From: an uncultured candidate division Zixibacteria bacterium
GTDB lineage: Bacteria; Zixibacteria; MSB-5A5; RBG-16-43-9
DNA length: 64,000 nucleotides
NCBI GenBank assembly: GCA_963713865.1
Contig: OY970208.1
Coordinates: 1-64,000 of the forward strand
Direction of reading: 5' to 3'
The translations under genes and the position numbers were made by a program. Each line of letters begins with the position of its first letter. Position 1 is the stretch's first letter. The notes below the pieces were generated by a model. That model worked only from the letters and a program-made list of their open reading frames with translations, was not told the origin of the DNA and did not search any database. Of the stretch, positions 28,401 to 35,141 are shown one piece after another.

Positions 28401-28955
28401 TTAAGCTCGTTGGTATTTTTTCACCCCTTCAACATAAAGATTCCCACCATGACAATCCTGAACTACAATCGCTGGGAAATCTTTAATTTTGAACCGGCGA
28501 ATTGCTTCAGCCCCTAACTCCTCCCAGGCAACCAGCTCATTGGCGGTAATCGACTTGGCAATTAAGGCCGCCGCTCCACCTACTGCGGCGAAATAGACCC
28601 CCTTGTACTTTTTTAAAGCCTCTGCTACTGCAGGTCCCATCTCCCCTTTACCGATCATTCCTTTTGAGCCAGCTTGAAGAATTCTGGGAGCGTATTTATT
28701 CATCCTGCCTGAGGTAGTTGGTCCAGCAGAACCCACCACTTTCCCTGGGCGAGCAGGAGATGGACCAACATAGTAAATCAGCTGTCCTTTCAGATCAAAG
28801 GGCAATTTCTCCCCTCTATCTAACATCTCTGTCATCCTTTTATGGGCCGCATCTCTAGCAGTATATATCTCGCCGGTGATTAATACATTATCGCCTGCTT
28901 TTAAACTCTCAACTACCTGATCATTCAAAGGGGTAGTTATTTTTTTAGCTGGCAT
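28401..28955 (-). CDS. Fe-S hydro-lyase (class I fumarase/tartrate dehydratase) beta subunit
   Basis: TARDAAHKR, GSAGPTTSGRM, MIGKG; ATG at 28955 after GGAGG. Confidence 0.92.
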   Translation of the reverse strand: MPAKKITTPLNDQVVESLKAGDNVLITGEIYTARDAAHKRMTEMLDRGEKLPFDLKGQLIYYVGPSPARPGKVVGSAGPTTSGRMNKYAPRILQAGSKGMIGKGEMGPAVAEALKKYKGVYFAAVGGAAALIAKSITANELVAWEELGAEAIRRFKIKDFPAIVVQDCHGGNLYVEGVKKYQRA

Positions 28956-28992
28956 TTTAACCTCCGATTTTTTTAAATTAATCTCTTTATGT

Positions 28993-29835
28993 TTAGATAA
29001 TAGCTTCTTTATGTCTGTCAGCATGGCACTGAATATTAACTGCGGCCGGGAAAGAAGCTATGTGACAGGGGTAAGTCTCTACATGTACAGCTAAAGCAGT
29101 TATCCTTCCTCCGAACCCCTGGGGACCTATCCCTGATTTGTTTACCTTCTCCAATAGCTCTTTCTCCAGATTGGCATAAAATGGATTTGGATTTTGAGAG
29201 CCAACTGGCCTTAAAAGGGCTCTTTTAGCCATCTCAGCACATTTCTCGAAGGTGCCTCCAATACCTACTCCGACAATTATGGGAGGGCAAGGATTGGAGC
29301 CAGAACCTTCTGACCATATCGATAACAAACTCTTTCACACCTTCTACACCATCAGATGGCTTCATCATCTTAACCTCGGACATATTCTCACTTCCACCAC
29401 CCTTGGGAGCTACGATTATCTTCAATTTATCTCCCTTAACCACATTCATATGAATAACTGCAGGAGTATTATCCCCGGTATTTTTCCTCTCGATCGGATC
29501 CCCAAGATAGACTTCCGCAGATACCCTTCCTTATATCCCTGTCTGACCCCCTCATTAATTGCTTCAAACAGATTTCCATCCTTAACAAAGACCTGATCTC
29601 CCATATCTACGAAGATTACAGCAAAGCCGGTGTCCTGACATAAGGGGAATTCTCCTTCTTTGGCTATATTGATATTTTCCAGAATCTGGCCAAGGGTCTC
29701 CTTTGAGGTTAGCGACTCTTCTTTCTGATATCCCTCTTTCAGAGCCTTTTCCACGTCCTCCCCTAAATTATAATTAGCATCGATACATAAGCCCTTCACG
29801 GTGCTGATAATATCTTTAACCGATATTTCTCGCAT
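28993..29835 (-). CDS. Fe-S hydro-lyase (class I fumarase) alpha subunit, two apparent frameshifts
   Basis: PLCQDTG, YLRKS, PKGGGSEN, NPCPP, HIASFP..VNIQCHA spread over three frames (breaks at ~29502 G-run and ~29303). Confidence 0.9.
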
Positions 29836-29851
29836 AGATACCTCCTTTTCT

Positions 29852-30526
29852 CTATTGCGTTTTTTGGGTTAACTCTAAAATACCGTTAATCAAGTTCTTT
29901 AAACCCATACCCAGCTCGCTCAGATTAGTTTTCATCTGAGAGCCGGAGGTGGTGACTATCCAATTCTCAGAATCTATCACTGCTTCCTGGGCTCTGGTTA
30001 TAATATGATTGACACCCATCTTCTCAAGCTGGCTGGATAATTCTGAATCATTCCCCAGGGTTAAGGTCAAAGGAGAAGTAGCAATATCCCTCAGGCAGGA
30101 AGCTATTACCAGGTTAGCTACTCCACAACCGGCAATCGGCTTCTTCCGCCTGTAAATTTCACGGATTAGTTTTTTCAGCTCCGGCTCAACCTTCAAGAAC
30201 AGGTTCTTCTCATCCGCTTGAGTGAATTTTTTCAACAGTCCTTGTCCTCCTGGAAGTATCAAGGCTGACAGGGTCTCAGCGCTGATCTCTTTTAGCTCTT
30301 TTAACCTATCGTGAGTGATCAAAGCCATCTCGGAGAAAAAATTTGAAGGAACGGTCTGTGGACTTTTTTCACTATTATTAGAACTATCCAGATTATAAGG
30401 CTGAGAAGAGAAAGATATGGTCTTTATTTTCCTCTCCTCTAAAAAATAATTAAGTAATACCACTTCCCAGATATCGGTACCATTATTATAGCCACAGCCG
30501 CTTAAAAAGATGCCAAAAGGTTTCAT
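29852..30526 (-). CDS. ElbB/ES1-like DJ-1 superfamily protein (divergent)
   Basis: LSGCGYNNGTDIWE, LILPGG.G, LTLGND. Confidence 0.75.
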   Translation of the reverse strand: MKPFGIFLSGCGYNNGTDIWEVVLLNYFLEERKIKTISFSSQPYNLDSSNNSEKSPQTVPSNFFSEMALITHDRLKELKEISAETLSALILPGGQGLLKKFTQADEKNLFLKVEPELKKLIREIYRRKKPIAGCGVANLVIASCLRDIATSPLTLTLGNDSELSSQLEKMGVNHIITRAQEAVIDSENWIVTTSGSQMKTNLSELGMGLKNLINGILELTQKTQ

Positions 30527-30600
30527 CTTGAGAAAAATTTAAAATTTTAAAGAGCTGTATCCTTTTTGGGCAAATCCCCAGATTTACTTCTTTCTTCCTC

Positions 30601-30652
30601 GTAATGCGACCCTTTCAGGACCTCCATGGCGAGGCTAAAAGCCTCGCACTAC
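30601..30652. repeat. REP doublet family F (GTAATGCGACCC...CGCACTAC)
   Basis: Related at 46589-46612, 51411-51494 and split at 16853-17034. Confidence 0.75.
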
Positions 30653-30722
30653 GAATTTTTTCCGCAAAAGTGGATGCCCCTCTCTACAGACCTTGTGAAA
30701 TTTTTATCAATTAAGAAAAAAA

Positions 30723-30974
30723 TTAAGCATATACGCTTACCATCTTTTTGTCCCTTCCCTGTCTTTCGAATTTGACCAGCCCGGTTATCCGGGCAAACAG
30801 GGTATTATCTTTTCCCATTCCCACATTCAATCCGGGATGAATTTTAGTCCCCTTCTGCCGGACTAAAATAGAGCCAGCCAAGACCTTTTCTCCAGAGAAT
30901 TTTTTAACACCTAATCTCTGACCCTGGGAATCCCTGCCGTTTCTGGAACTACCTACACCTTTCTTATGCGCCAT
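30723..30974 (-). CDS. rpmA: 50S ribosomal protein L27
   Basis: [23 protein letters not shown]. Confidence 0.98.
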
Positions 30975-31089
30975 TACAAAGCACCTCCTTTCCTACAGAG
31001 CAAAACACTTTTAAAAAAATCGAAATTAAACCCACTCCCCTATATACGGGGAATTTAGTTTGAGAAGTTAATAAACTTTTATCTTTTTG

Positions 31090-31230
31090 GCAAGAAAAAT
31101 CTATCTAAGGCTTTGAAGATTTTTTGATCTTAAATTTGACTGTCGTGTCTCCTTACCCGATTCACCAGAGGCGAACCAGTCCAGTCCTCTTTAGGCGGAT
31201 GGCAAACACATAAGCGGGGCTGGGAGCCCC
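31090..31230. repeat. direct repeat copy 1: clpC 3'-end duplicate plus REP-derived segment
   Basis: 31090-31130 matches 32667-32707 at 39/41 nt; 31097-31230 aligns ungapped with 32239-32372 (about 116/134 by hand count). Confidence 0.9.
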
Positions 31231-31238
31231 GTCTTTTT

Positions 31239-31976
31239 TCAATAAGTAAAGCAGCAACCCATTTCAAGCGAAGAGCCGTTCTTGAAAAGGTAATTTATAA
31301 TATAAACAACATCGCTTACAGTTATCTTGCAATCCAGATTAACATCGCCCGAAGGCAGGTAAGCAGGAGGAGAACCGCCCTTAAATAAATAGTTAACCAG
31401 ATAAATCACATCAGAAACAAAAACATGTCCATCCTGGTTAACGTCACCTGGTAAGATGTTCTGCTCTTGAATACGAAACTCAGAAGGGATAAAATGAGGA
31501 GGAAATACATTAAAAGTCGAATCCGTAAAATTAAAAGGTTCATCTGTAATCGGAATAGTTAGGTCGATAGTGGCTAAACCAGTATCCTGAACCGTGAAAT
31601 ACATATACAGGTATATACCCTGACCAGGAGGCATGTATTCCGGGATAAGATTAGTAATAAAGACCTTTTTCTCCTCATTAATAATGAAAACTCCTGGATA
31701 ATAGGGATCATCAAACCTACCCTCTGCAAAAAGAATGGTATCTAAAGAGATTTCACCGGTCCATTCAAGCGGGATGAACATCCACTCAATAGATTCATCA
31801 TTAAATACATACATTGGCACAACCGCCCTTCCGGTGCAAGGAGAGCAGGGGACATAAGTTCCCCAGAGCAAAAATCTTACTATATCCGGTATCCCTGGAT
31901 CTTGAGCTAGGGTGGGTAAGTAGTTAAAAAAGAAAAGAAACCCTAATATCAAAAAAATTAATAAGGCTTTTTTCAT
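31239..31976 (-). CDS. secreted protein with C-terminal type I dockerin domain
   Basis: Signal peptide; GDVNQDGHVFVSDVIYLVNYLF and GDVNLDCKITVSDVVYIINYLF repeats. Confidence 0.9.
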   Translation of the reverse strand: MKKALLIFLILGFLFFFNYLPTLAQDPGIPDIVRFLLWGTYVPCSPCTGRAVVPMYVFNDESIEWMFIPLEWTGEISLDTILFAEGRFDDPYYPGVFIINEEKKVFITNLIPEYMPPGQGIYLYMYFTVQDTGLATIDLTIPITDEPFNFTDSTFNVFPPHFIPSEFRIQEQNILPGDVNQDGHVFVSDVIYLVNYLFKGGSPPAYLPSGDVNLDCKITVSDVVYIINYLFKNGSSLEMGCCFTY

Positions 31977-32238
31977 ATAAACCTTCTTCCTTGGGACATA
32001 TTTTATACAATATCTACCTTATATATAAATGATAGAATCCACTTGTCAAGGAAAAAATTAAGTTTTTCGAATATTTAAGATTGATTTTGCCCTGTTTTTG
32101 TAGTTAATAGAAATAAACTAAAGGAGAAAAGTTCAAAATTCCGAAAGGTGACTTTTCTCTTTATTGAATCTTTTGAAATTTTATTTTCTTATTATGATGG
32201 TCTGCAAAAAGGTGGGTTCTTTATAACTGTTTATTAAC

Positions 32239-32647
32239 AAATCTATCTTAGGCTTTAAAGATTTTTCAATCTTAAATGTGACCGTCGGGTCCCCCGGCCC
32301 AACTCACCAGAGGCGAACCAGGCCAGTCCTATTTAGGCGGATGGCAAACACTTTAGTGGGGCTGGGAGCCCCACCTACGAATGTTGGAGTGTAAAGTTTT
32401 AGCTTTACATTTTCAACTTAGGTGGTTTGAATAGTAAAAGAATTAGTTTCGGCAAACCTATCCGAGAAGCAGAGACTACGTCTGGCGCCCTACGGGCGGG
32501 CTGGCTCGTAGCCACCGTAGGAAAGATTCGCACTCCAAAACGGTAATCACATCTTGCCTTCAAGGTGGGATTAATTTATAAACGTAACCGTCGGATCTTC
32601 TGACCCGACGGAAAATAAACTTGCCAGGTCAGGGGACCTGGCAAGCA
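32239..32647. repeat. direct repeat copy 2 followed by REP cluster
   Basis: 134-bp repeat, GGAG-tagged pair 32383-32538 with insert 32461-32521, family B 32551-32573, GTAACCGTCGG doublet 32583-32648. Confidence 0.8.
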
Positions 32648-32681
32648 CAAAACTTATACTCTTTAAGCAAGAAAAATCTAT

Positions 32682-35141
32682 CTAAGGCTTTAAAGATTTT
32701 TTAATCTCCCCTTCCTCTCTAACCTTTATCTCAAAATGGAGATTATCCTCTTCTCTCTGGTCCACAACTACGTGGCAATTTTTAACAAATTGACCCCTCA
32801 AAATCTCCTCAGCCAGAGGATCTTCTAAATATTTCTGAATAGCCCTTTTCAAAGGTCTGGCTCCAAATGTTGGATTGTAACCTTTTTCCGCCAAAAACTC
32901 CTTAGCTTTATCCGTTAGCTCAAAGGTGATACTTTTTTCAGATAACCTTTTAGCCACATCCATTAAGAGAATATCGATTATCTGCATTATCTCGTTCATC
33001 CCCAGGGGTTTGAAGATAATCACTTCATCAATCCGGTTTAAAAGCTCAGGATTAAAAGTCCTTTTAAGCTCATCTGTTATCTTCTGCTTCATCTGTTCAA
33101 AGGAGGAGATTATGTCATCTTTTTGAAACCCTAAGGCTTTTCCAGATTTTATCTCCCTTGTGCCCATATTGGAAGTCATAATTACTACGCTATTTTTGAA
33201 ATCAACCTTTCGACCGAAACTATCAGTTAAAGCTCCATCATCCAACATCTGCAAAAGAATATTAAACACCTCTGGATGAGCCTTCTCAATCTCATCTAAG
33301 AGCACAACTGAATACGGTTTCCGTCTGACTTTCTCGGTTAATTGTCCACCTTCCTCATAACCCACATATCCAGGAGGAGCACCTATTAATCTTGAGACTG
33401 AGAACTTCTCCATATACTCGGACATATCTATGCGGATCAAAGAATCCTCATCCTCAAATAAGAAGGTGGCTAAACAGCGTGCTAATTCAGTTTTTCCTAC
33501 TCCTGTAGGACCCAAGAAAATAAAAGAGCCAATGGGCCTTCTCGGATCTCCCAAACCTGCTCTGGACCTGCGTATGGCTTTAGTTATAGCTGTAACTGCC
33601 TCATCCTGGCCTACCAGCCTTTTCTTTATCTCCTCTTCCATCCTCAAAAGCTTTTTGGATTCTTTCTCCTCTAATCTGAAAACCGGGATACCGGTCATCT
33701 TGGAAACAATCTGAGCAATATCCTCTGCCGTTAGAATCACTACCTCTTTGCTTTTTTCCTCTTCCCATTTCCTCTTAAGAGATTCCAACTCCTCTTTTTT
33801 AAATTTCAATTCATCCCTTAACTGGGCTGCTTTTTCAAACTCCTGGTTTTTAACTGCTAAATCCTTTTCTTTCTGGAGCTGGTTAATCACCTGCTCGAAT
33901 TCTCCAAATTCAGGTGGTTTAGTATAGGTGGAAAGATGTGCACGTGAGCCAGCCTCGTCTATTACATCTAACGCTTTGTCCGGTTGGAACTTACCAGAAA
34001 CATATCTATCGGATAGTTTCACCGCAGCTTCAACTGCCTCATCTATAATTTTTATCTTGTGATGTTCTTCATACTTCTGCTTTAAGCCATTCAAAATTTT
34101 AATGGTATCTTGTGTGCTTGGAGGATCAACCATCACAATTTGAAACCTTCTTTCCAATGCACCATCTTTCTCTATATATTTTCTATATTCATTCAGAGTA
34201 GTTGCACCTATGCACTGGATCTCACCTCTGGAAAGAGTAGGCTTGAATATATTGGAAGCATCTAAAGAACCTTCAGCTCCACCTGCCCCTACAATGGTAT
34301 GAAGCTCATCAATAAATATGATAACATCCTTGGAGTTGATGATCTCATTCATTACCGCTTTCATCCTCTCCTCAAATTGACCTCGATATTTTGTGCCAGC
34401 GACCAAGGAAGCCATATCCAGGGTTACGATCCTTTTATTCTCTAAGGTCTGTGGCACCTTTCCTTCTACTATCTTTTGAGCTAACCCCTCGGCAATAGCT
34501 GTTTTGCCCACTCCTGGTTCCCCGATTAAAACTGGATTGTTCTTCTTTCTGCGGGAAAGTATTTGAGAGACCCTCTCGATCTCATTTTCCCTTCCAATTA
34601 TCGGATCTAATTTACCTTTACGAGCCAGTTCGGTTAGATCTCTGCCAAAGTGGTCTAAGGCTGGAGTTTTACTTTTTTTCCTTTTCTTTCCATATGAAGA
34701 AGGTTTTCCGGATTGAATATTTTTGAGTTCTTCATAAGCTTCTTTATAATCTATATCATACATCGAAAGGACCTGTGCCGCAACCCCTTCCTCATCTCTA
34801 AGCAAAGCTAACAGTATATGTTCAGCATCTATCTCTTTAGCTTTCAAAGCCCTGGCTTCCTGACCGGAGACCTCTAAGGTCTTTTTTGCACGAGCAGTTA
34901 AAGGAAGCTGTCCCATAGTCAGAGTTCCGCCTGAAGGCTGGACCACATCTTCTATCGACTGCCTGAGCTCTGAAAGGTCTATCCCTATATTGGTAAGGGT
35001 CTCAACTGCCCTTCCCTCCCCCAGTCTGACTATACCTAAGAGGAGATGTTCTGTTCCAATATAGTCATGCCTCAGCCGGGAGGCTTCATCCCTGGCATAC
35101 TCTATTACCTTTCTGGCTTTTTCCGAGAACATCTCATTCAT
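32682..35141 (-). CDS. clpC: ATP-dependent Clp protease ATPase ClpC
   Basis: Clp_N repeats, [11 protein letters not shown] middle domain, [15 protein letters not shown]. Confidence 0.97.

Follow-up and report, generated by a model that had tools for sequence, protein, structure and literature searches.

How did a gene for a predicted secreted cohesin-dockerin protein come to lie between clpC and rpmA in an uncultured Zixibacteria bacterium, and how did the end of clpC come to stand on either side of it? The question is raised by the first 64,000 nucleotides of contig OY970208.1 (the window; positions given below are positions in this stretch unless they are called own-genome coordinates, which refer to the whole 2.72-Mb genome, G000). 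An earlier note on the window had described a clpC 3′ end present three times and a 134-bp repeat around a dockerin gene, a description that was borne out in every particular. We propose that the locus probably arose by insertion with long target duplication at the clpC/rpmA junction, followed by homologous recombination between the flanking repeats. The third copy of the clpC end and the patchy distribution of the gene among relatives fit ordinary recombination between junction copies rather than a new mechanism of cassette capture. The family compared consists of nine genomes (G000 to G008, G000 being the one that holds the window), and the clpC-rpmA junction was dissected in 18 genomes of the order.

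Three copies of the clpC end

The genes of the region, clpC, a 245-amino-acid open reading frame (ORF) and rpmA, all lie on the minus strand. The clpC ORF (35141..32682, 819 amino acids, with Pfam domains AAA_2, AAA_lid_9, ClpB_D2-small, Clp_N and UVR) ends in a TAG stop at 32684-32682, and its last eight codons and stop make up the left part of a piece that is repeated downstream. The rpmA gene for ribosomal protein L27 (30974..30723; Pfam Ribosomal_L27, 125.7 bits) follows after a spacer of 1707 nt in total. The repeated piece forms a 58-nt family at 32650-32707, 31073-31130 (86% identity) and 32215-32272 (66% overall), the last of these being sound only over 32239-32272, where it is 94% identical to 32674-32707; a 41-nt core around the clpC stop aligns with 39 of its 41 positions identical. 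The gene itself is bracketed by an ungapped direct repeat of 134 nt (31097-31230 and 32239-32372, 87% identity). In the whole 2.72-Mb genome the 134-nt match has an E value of 1.5e-40 and the 58-nt match one of 4.4e-13, and the clpC-end piece was found nowhere in that genome beyond its three places.

In minus-strand order the parts are clpC with the first copy; a 277-nt filler; a hairpin, a segment that we call S and the middle copy; a promoter and the cargo gene; the hairpin and S again, with the third copy; and finally the rpmA promoter, leader and rpmA. The first copy (32650..32707) consists of the true clpC end, 26 nt through the stop, and 32 nt of former intergenic DNA; its -35 element has decayed to TTGCTT, a -10 element is absent, and in an alignment with the single-copy junction of G008 it covers positions 1-80. 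Repeat unit 2 (32239..32372) comprises the hairpin (about 32356-32374), the S core (about 32277-32352), a linker and the middle copy (32239-32272), in which the stop has been altered to a TAA-less CCTAAG. Repeat unit 1 (31097..31230) has the same make-up, with the hairpin at 31215-31231, the S core at about 31135-31210, a linker and the beginning of the copy nearest rpmA. This third copy (31073..31130) is a pseudo clpC end, with two differences in 25 nt, that continues into ancestral intergenic DNA and the rpmA promoter. An intact clpC stop is thus present only in the first copy and a complete rpmA promoter only in the rpmA-proximal one. The middle copy is a hybrid, having on its left side S and the linker TTTAAGAT, the same as the rpmA-proximal copy, and leading on its right side to the cargo promoter, a place that in G004, G005 and G007 belongs to the true clpC end. 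The promoter spacer ATAAAAGTTTATTAAC of the rpmA-proximal copy (31067-31082) recurs in inverted orientation just past the middle copy, at 32223-32238 (14 of 16 nt identical), which may reflect template switching or chance.

The native junction and the rpmA promoter

The C-terminus of ClpC, EIKKSLKP followed by the stop, is kept in nine of nine family genomes, and clpC is followed by rpmA in all 18 genomes of the order that were dissected, with a gap of just 12-16 nt in family f4. The repeated piece is therefore the native end of clpC and not part of a mobile element. Its right half is former spacer that includes the -35 box of the putative rpmA promoter. This promoter and a leader hairpin occupy 31034..31093 (minus strand), with -35 TTGCCA at 31093-31088, -10 TAACTT at 31070-31065 and the hairpin at 31054-31034. 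The module of TTGCCA, 17 nt and TAACTT stands next to rpmA in eight of the nine aligned family rows; the G006 row had been wrongly cut in the alignment, and the G006 copy was instead read directly. Just upstream of the -35 element the pseudo clpC end is A+T-rich, and over 25 nt it shows only one or two differences across the three genomes of the genus. The pseudo clpC end may well serve as the upstream part of the rpmA promoter, which would explain the retention of a duplication that includes coding sequence.

The hairpin in the rpmA 5′ leader (AAACCCA and TGGGTTT around a CCCCGTATATAGGGG core, 31034-31054) is conserved in the family leaders read, although it is not clear in G005, and it may be an L27-responsive or a processing element. 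An Rfam scan of 30400-33000 at E values up to 1 gave zero matches, so that S and the rpmA leader correspond to no known RNA family.

The junction in related genomes

The earlier note had suggested a comparison of clpC-rpmA intervals in relatives, which indeed yielded both empty and occupied sites. The shortest spacers are those of G008 (117 nt, one copy) and G006 (268 nt, one copy with a REP-like insert further down, REP being repetitive extragenic palindromic elements). The gene is absent also from G003 (290 nt), G001 (324 nt) and G002 (365 nt), the last two having two copies of the junction piece and REP filler; it is present in G007 (1172 nt), G004 (1175 nt) and G000 (1707 nt), and G005 (1906 nt) has two genes in tandem. 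The orthologues in G004, G005 and G007 have 45-58% amino acid identity to the G000 cargo and occur at this locus only. The other five family genomes have only paralogues of about 35% identity, which G000 also has, at 2411 kb of its own genome. In a tree of 18 members of the cargo family the five copies from this locus form one clade (support 93/92), and the closest relatives outside it are at other loci, in families f4 and f2. The region upstream of the cargo ORF (31977..32238, minus strand), with a promoter TTGACA at 32049-32044, is homologous to those of the orthologues in G004, G005 and G007; the upstream regions with this common TTGACA box align over about 100 nt.

Loss of the gene can be seen directly in G001 and G002, where both junction copies have been kept, and weakly visible in G003. 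The G002 junction equals that of G000 minus one unit. In G006 and G008 the single-copy junction aligns across both G000 copies and, by the trees, may reflect secondary losses; the tree of ClpC and L27 gives (G000,(G001,G002)) and leaves genus g3 unresolved, and the paralogue clade groups (G004,G007) and (G006,G008). One old insertion, with repeats that have since decayed in some lines, would be the most economical reading, and it is possible instead that the same gene was inserted independently in different genera.

Two observations from individual relatives may be added. In G005 the two cohesin-dockerin genes (L051 1100-2621) are separated by about 45 nt that include no copy of the junction, and this tandem arose by a route other than that proposed for G000. 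In G012, from family f2, the 635-nt clpC-rpmA spacer contains a gene for a HicB-like antitoxin and one for a HicA toxin (L046 812-1250), a pair that sits after an rpmA-type promoter and leader, that is, other cargo at the same gene junction.

A proposed course of insertion, duplication and recombination

The proposed course of events would begin in an ancestor of this Zixibacteria family, where a promoter-bearing cohesin-dockerin gene would have been inserted into the tight clpC/rpmA junction. The insertion would have duplicated a target of about 58 nt, made up of the last 26 nt of clpC with the stop and a 32-nt spacer that contains the upstream half of the promoter of rpmA, after which the left copy would have served as the clpC end and the right copy as the full rpmA promoter. 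S, a REP doublet and other REP-type hairpins would later have colonised the non-coding DNA newly formed in the genus. Unequal exchange between the copies, or excision of a circle and its re-integration, would then have turned two copies around one insert into three copies around two inserts, with a hybrid middle copy, and the first insert would subsequently have lost its gene, retaining only the hairpin and S. The gene-free alleles of relatives would stem from the reciprocal product and from exchange between the 134-nt repeats. The two units have their terminal hairpin and S in common and are therefore copies of each other and not two independent arrivals; a hybrid middle copy is the product expected of unequal homologous exchange. 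What the earlier note had offered as successive att-like insertions does not agree with this common hairpin and S, nor with the family showing one orthologous cargo at this locus; its other proposal, an insertion at a fixed junction with target duplication and no recombinase gene inside, is supported.

Deletion alleles of the expected size are present in contigs of public metagenomes. Four metagenome runs were compared, as contigs only, the best share of sampled words being 0.19. A contig in metagenome X6 joins 31192 to 32336, a skip of 1143 nt where the spacing of the repeats is 1142 nt; one in X2 (14.7 kb, 96-97% identity) joins 31019 to 32239 by way of 75 other letters; and one in X1 has the single-copy form, with 31102 joined to 32694.

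Several points weigh against this account. Of the gene-bearing relatives, G004 has only a marginal trace of the duplication and G005 none that could be detected, and in G003 there is only a weak second promoter-like copy, of a strength that 3 of 300 shuffles also reached. The duplicated extent differs by genus: measured along the G008 single-copy junction as a ruler, the copies overlap at positions 23-80 in G000, G001 and G002 (58 nt) and at 31-64 in G007 (34 nt). Minimum counts on the trees are equal, with three losses against three gains. The first unit holds no remnant of a cargo gene detectable by similarity at E 1e-3; a GCTTTAC match before the hairpin was considered as such a remnant and, as it lies in a palindrome, was judged to be chance. 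Units 1 and 2 differ by 13%, yet they share S states that are missing from the S of G002, and from the sequences the order of unit duplication and speciation appears ambiguous. Dating the duplication relative to the split between G000 and G002 by S sites was tried and rejected, the G002 S having an internal deletion and odd states. No contig in the four runs covers the gene body (31531-31772), although with a word share below 1/5 this empty cover is uninformative, and the three-copy form is without independent confirmation.

The 13% between the units also bears on a different history, one in which the immediate ancestors lacked the gene, as G001, G002 and the X2 and X6 populations do, and a diverged relative recently supplied the gene, hairpin, S and a junction copy on an excised circle or fragment, which recombined into the resident copy. 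The difference exceeds the divergence of clpC between G000 and G002 (5%), the closest sequences available are gene-free (G001, G002 and metagenome contigs of 94-97% identity), and the G000 gene branch is long (0.53). However, the S substitutions shared by units 1 and 2 and lacking in G002 suggest an origin within the lineage, and no donor was found. We regard such a re-gain as unlikely; its mechanism, recombination between repeats, would in any case be identical to that of insertion followed by exchange between the copies, and the history alone would differ.

The thin metagenome cover likewise leads to the suspicion that repeats were collapsed or expanded in the assembly, the window being part of a single metagenome-derived contig. 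None of the independent contigs from the four runs extends over the gene body or the whole three-copy arrangement. Against such an artefact, the copies are diverged (86-87% identity), which is not something that assemblers create, independent assemblies have counterparts of the junctions (G002 for unit 2; G007, G004 and G005 for the gene), and one contig, from X4, spans 31919-32153. An artefact of this sort is hardly credible.

REP-type elements at the junction

The segment of about 100 nt attached to both extra copies contains a GGGGCTCCCAGCCCC hairpin and the S core of about 76 nt. Three more copies of the core are present in the genome, at own-genome coordinates 2078686-2078769, 2532309-2532385 and 1729507-1729582, and the best S copy forms several hairpins (z -3.06 against shuffles). 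The filler (32373..32649, 277 nt) is made up mostly of dispersed REP-type hairpin repeats and has no credible ORF. A REP doublet covers about 32585-32650, where hairpins stand at 32646-32619 and at 32611-32588; another repeat family occupies about 32451-32551. In a BLAST comparison with the own genome, 32561-32677 had matches in 17 other places, 32535-32576 in one more and 32451-32551 in 13. The genome has eight matches to Y1_Tnp, all of them outside the interval, one being separated by 126 nt from a copy of that doublet. Filler and S thus have the features of REP elements or REPINs with a REP-associated tyrosine transposase (RAYT), namely short hairpin repeats, dispersed copies and a Y1 transposase in the genome.

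It is these elements that the earlier note had put forward as possible drivers of gene capture; in such a scheme S or REP elements and their Y1 transposase would have moved the gene and copied the clpC end. S does abut both extra copies at an identical junction, and the genome has many REP families in addition to its Y1_Tnp matches. This explanation is nonetheless contradicted by the gene-bearing sites of G004, G005 and G007, from which S is absent, and by G001, where a different REP doublet stands in its place. A genome-wide search for the attachment of the segment to duplicated gene ends, which the note had proposed, went the other way: none of the three other S copies adjoins or sits within a local duplicated gene end. 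We know of no duplication of tens of target bases by REP or RAYT activity, and consider this explanation very improbable. As S is missing from occupied sites, replaced in G001 and unlinked to duplications elsewhere, the REP-type elements are later settlers of the new non-coding DNA at the junction, passengers rather than agents of the duplication.

Analogous loci and the question of cassettes

The note had asked whether analogous loci exist. A screen for low-copy local direct repeats across the own genome found the same signature, one repeat copy across a gene stop and the other beyond a recombinase-free insert, at a minimum of four more loci (all positions in this section are own-genome coordinates, except where a relative is named). 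Between czcD and ileS (707538-709185; L064, L087-L089) a 55-nt duplication of the czcD 3′ end is present in G000, G001, G006 and probably G003, with a conserved TGGGATAAT-like box after the first copy. The cargo is an HNH/HNH_repeat nuclease in G000; a restriction-modification (RM) unit of a 328-amino-acid ORF and an N6_Mtase/specificity fusion in G001; an FRG-domain protein (PADLOC PDC-S15) and a 160-amino-acid ORF in G006; and a 132-amino-acid ORF in G003. Like the clpC/rpmA junction, this slot has the 3′ end of the upstream gene duplicated before the start of the next gene, no recombinase, and a site conserved across genera, but its cargo varies from genome to genome, whereas the clpC/rpmA slot holds one orthologous gene or none in the family.

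At mnmE (668315-673771) the last approximately 70 nt of the gene (673699-673771, a 73-nt repeat) recur at 668390-668460, 5.2 kb downstream; six ORFs are enclosed, and a 63-nt leader module stands three times before different ORFs. At a zinc-dehydrogenase locus (L065, 1248890-1249841) a 123-nt duplication across the stop brackets a 115-amino-acid ORF without a Pfam match. The dehydrogenase there reads as two overlapping ORFs (140 and 228 amino acids), hence a frameshift or a sequencing error. At pepF, for a peptidase of family M3 (L066, 2502006-2507236), the 3′ end and terminator are duplicated over 152 nt at 90%, and the sequence continues after a REP insert; the 4.8-kb insert is of higher G+C content (45-55%) and encodes OmpA-like, C11-peptidase-like and uncharacterised ORFs. 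In G001 the pepF island has 95-96% identity and its flanks 88-90%, which suggests, on sequence comparison, a recent exchange within the genus.

Could these junctions be the attachment sites of site-specific cassettes, the 58-nt piece being an att-like site for a recombinase encoded elsewhere, integron-like or of the type of mobilisable islands, and the units separate integrations? The target is regenerated after insertion, there are three successive copies, the mnmE locus has copies of one leader between different genes, and the junction of G012, from another family, holds the hicBA pair. However, the units are duplicates of each other by their shared hairpin and S, the cargo carries its own promoter, and the repeat lengths range from 55 to 152 nt. 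A structured att-like site is not supported either: folding of the clpC-end piece is not above shuffles (z 0.68 and -0.04, with no attC model run), nor does it carry an inverted-repeat signature, and the five junction repeats have no common motif (0/10 pairs above shuffles). A hairpin at the clpC stop was rejected as a structured site, its fold being no better than that of shuffles. There is no integrase or transposase match between clpC and rpmA, and the four Phage_integrase matches of the genome lie at three places, none of them near, one gene being split over two matches and one match being partial. Separate site-specific integrations are accordingly quite improbable.

A broader idea is that the family may have recurrent landing places for recombinase-free insertions at operon junctions where the previous gene has its 3′ end overlapped by the promoter or ribosome site of the next (clpC/rpmA, czcD/ileS, mnmE, pepF and tdh, with duplications of 55-150 nt), the duplicates acting as "att" sites for recombination of RecA type. 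We hold this to be doubtful. If it were true, the enclosed genes could be excised as circles, re-inserted, stacked and exchanged between strains, and the family would have a cassette system based on homologous recombination that moves cohesin-dockerin and defence genes with no dedicated enzyme.

The note had also suggested that such events could help to explain the spread of dockerin genes. Of 33 genes that stand singly between low-copy local repeats 5 encode a dockerin, as do 60 of 2212 genes overall (Fisher p 0.0016); the test was post hoc, counted the index locus and relied on crude gene calls. The repeats around the 33 genes are 41-320 nt long, and three of the genes are Y1 transposases themselves. 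Two further dockerin genes were compared with five relatives as candidates and rejected, with no clean empty site at either. Synteny is lost at 510031-511863; for the gene at 1775897-1778167, G003 has an orthologue of 83%, the site in G002 may be gene-free, and the repeat is in part dispersed in relatives. A part of about 85 nt of the 186-nt repeat at this second gene occurs five times in G007:C2:6761-9392 (at 480-940-nt spacing) and three times in G001:C3:45220-46546, which looks like an array of small cassettes.

Comparison with known systems

Insertion with long target duplication was reportedly first described by Nobusato et al. in 2000, and to our knowledge its mechanism has been open since then. 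According to Furuta, Abe and Kobayashi (2010; PMC2853133), such inserts lack mobility genes and lie between repeats of more than 30 bp; these repeats have no other place in the genome and are single in a relative, and in two H. influenzae cases they extend over the 3′ end of the gene upstream. The units are proposed to amplify through the repeats, and maybe to be released, the insertion step being left unexplained; the amplification of repeat-flanked RM units is cited there as reference 84, and the published screens demanded RM genes as cargo (PMC2853133).

The locus in the window agrees with that description in having an insert below 20 kb (1707 nt), no integrase or transposase, and repeats of 58 nt (86%), or 34 nt in G007, that are genome-unique, are single-copy in the insert-free relatives G008 and G006, and overlap the 3′ end of the upstream gene. 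Its cargo, by contrast, is a cohesin-dockerin gene, but RM cargo was a criterion of the screens and not of the mechanism. The event here also differs in being old, with copies diverged and undetectable in some relatives, in the REP elements that fill the junction, and in the preservation of a three-copy state. With every structural feature of that description present in its sequence, we file the locus as an insertion with long target duplication.

The later steps resemble repeat-mediated tandem amplification and deletion, given the hybrid middle copy, the unit-sized deletion alleles and a skipped length equal to the repeat spacing. They differ in that recombination is known here from alleles only, and in that the first unit is gene-less, the tandem state being deduced from the common hairpin and S. 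With integron cassettes, and with clusters of attC sites lacking integron-integrases (CALINs), the locus shares a short gene followed by a repeated element of about 130 nt, several units and no recombinase inside; however, the repeat is a host gene end plus promoter and not an attC hairpin, it has no fold above shuffles, and the cargo is promoter-bearing. No integron integrase was found near the array: the Phage_integrase matches are all more than 700 kb away, IntI-specific features not having been looked at. As in islands that tyrosine recombinases place at gene 3′ ends, the direct repeat includes the 3′ end of the target gene and leaves the gene intact, but here there is no recombinase gene within or beside the insert, the insert is about 1 kb in G007, and the repeat carries the promoter of the next gene too. 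The likeness to REP/REPIN elements with a RAYT is confined to the filler and S, which are short, hairpin-forming and dispersed in a genome with Y1_Tnp matches.

The locus thus adds a case with non-RM cargo, from an uncultured phylum, to insertion with long target duplication. It illustrates that an essential, tight junction, in which the clpC stop overlaps the rpmA promoter region, can take a foreign gene undamaged. Relatives and metagenome contigs between them show four states, empty, single, tandem and deleted, and such a set could serve to measure the rate of recombination between junction repeats. For annotation there is a warning, namely that short pseudo gene ends beside REP clusters are scars of such events and not new mobile elements.

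The cargo protein and a neighbouring enzyme

The cargo gene (31239..31976, minus strand) encodes a secreted protein of 245 amino acids with a signal peptide, a predicted cohesin-fold domain at about residues 27-170 and a type I dockerin at 176-230. It is the only ORF longer than 52 amino acids between clpC and rpmA, ORFs of 45-52 amino acids having been outside the Pfam scan. The dockerin is its sole Pfam match (PF00404, Dockerin_1, residues 176-230, with 34.9 bits where 22.9 is the cut-off), and the N-terminal domain had no Pfam cohesin match even at E 10. An AlphaFold2 model of this domain, made with 14 relatives, has a pLDDT of 76.8, and nearly all of its Foldseek matches listed are cohesin modules (best E 9.8e-6, TM by target about 0.66-0.74); the Atlas feature score of the cargo to cohesin clusters is 0.91. 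The cargo appears to be a cohesin-dockerin protein, its cohesin fold being predicted from modelled structure. A search of 34 genomes of the order found the domain family in 28, and a full-text literature search returned no paper joining "Zixibacteria" with "dockerin".

Downstream of rpmA, at 28401-29835, the window encodes a class I fumarate hydratase as separate alpha (Fumerase) and beta (Fumerase_C) ORFs.

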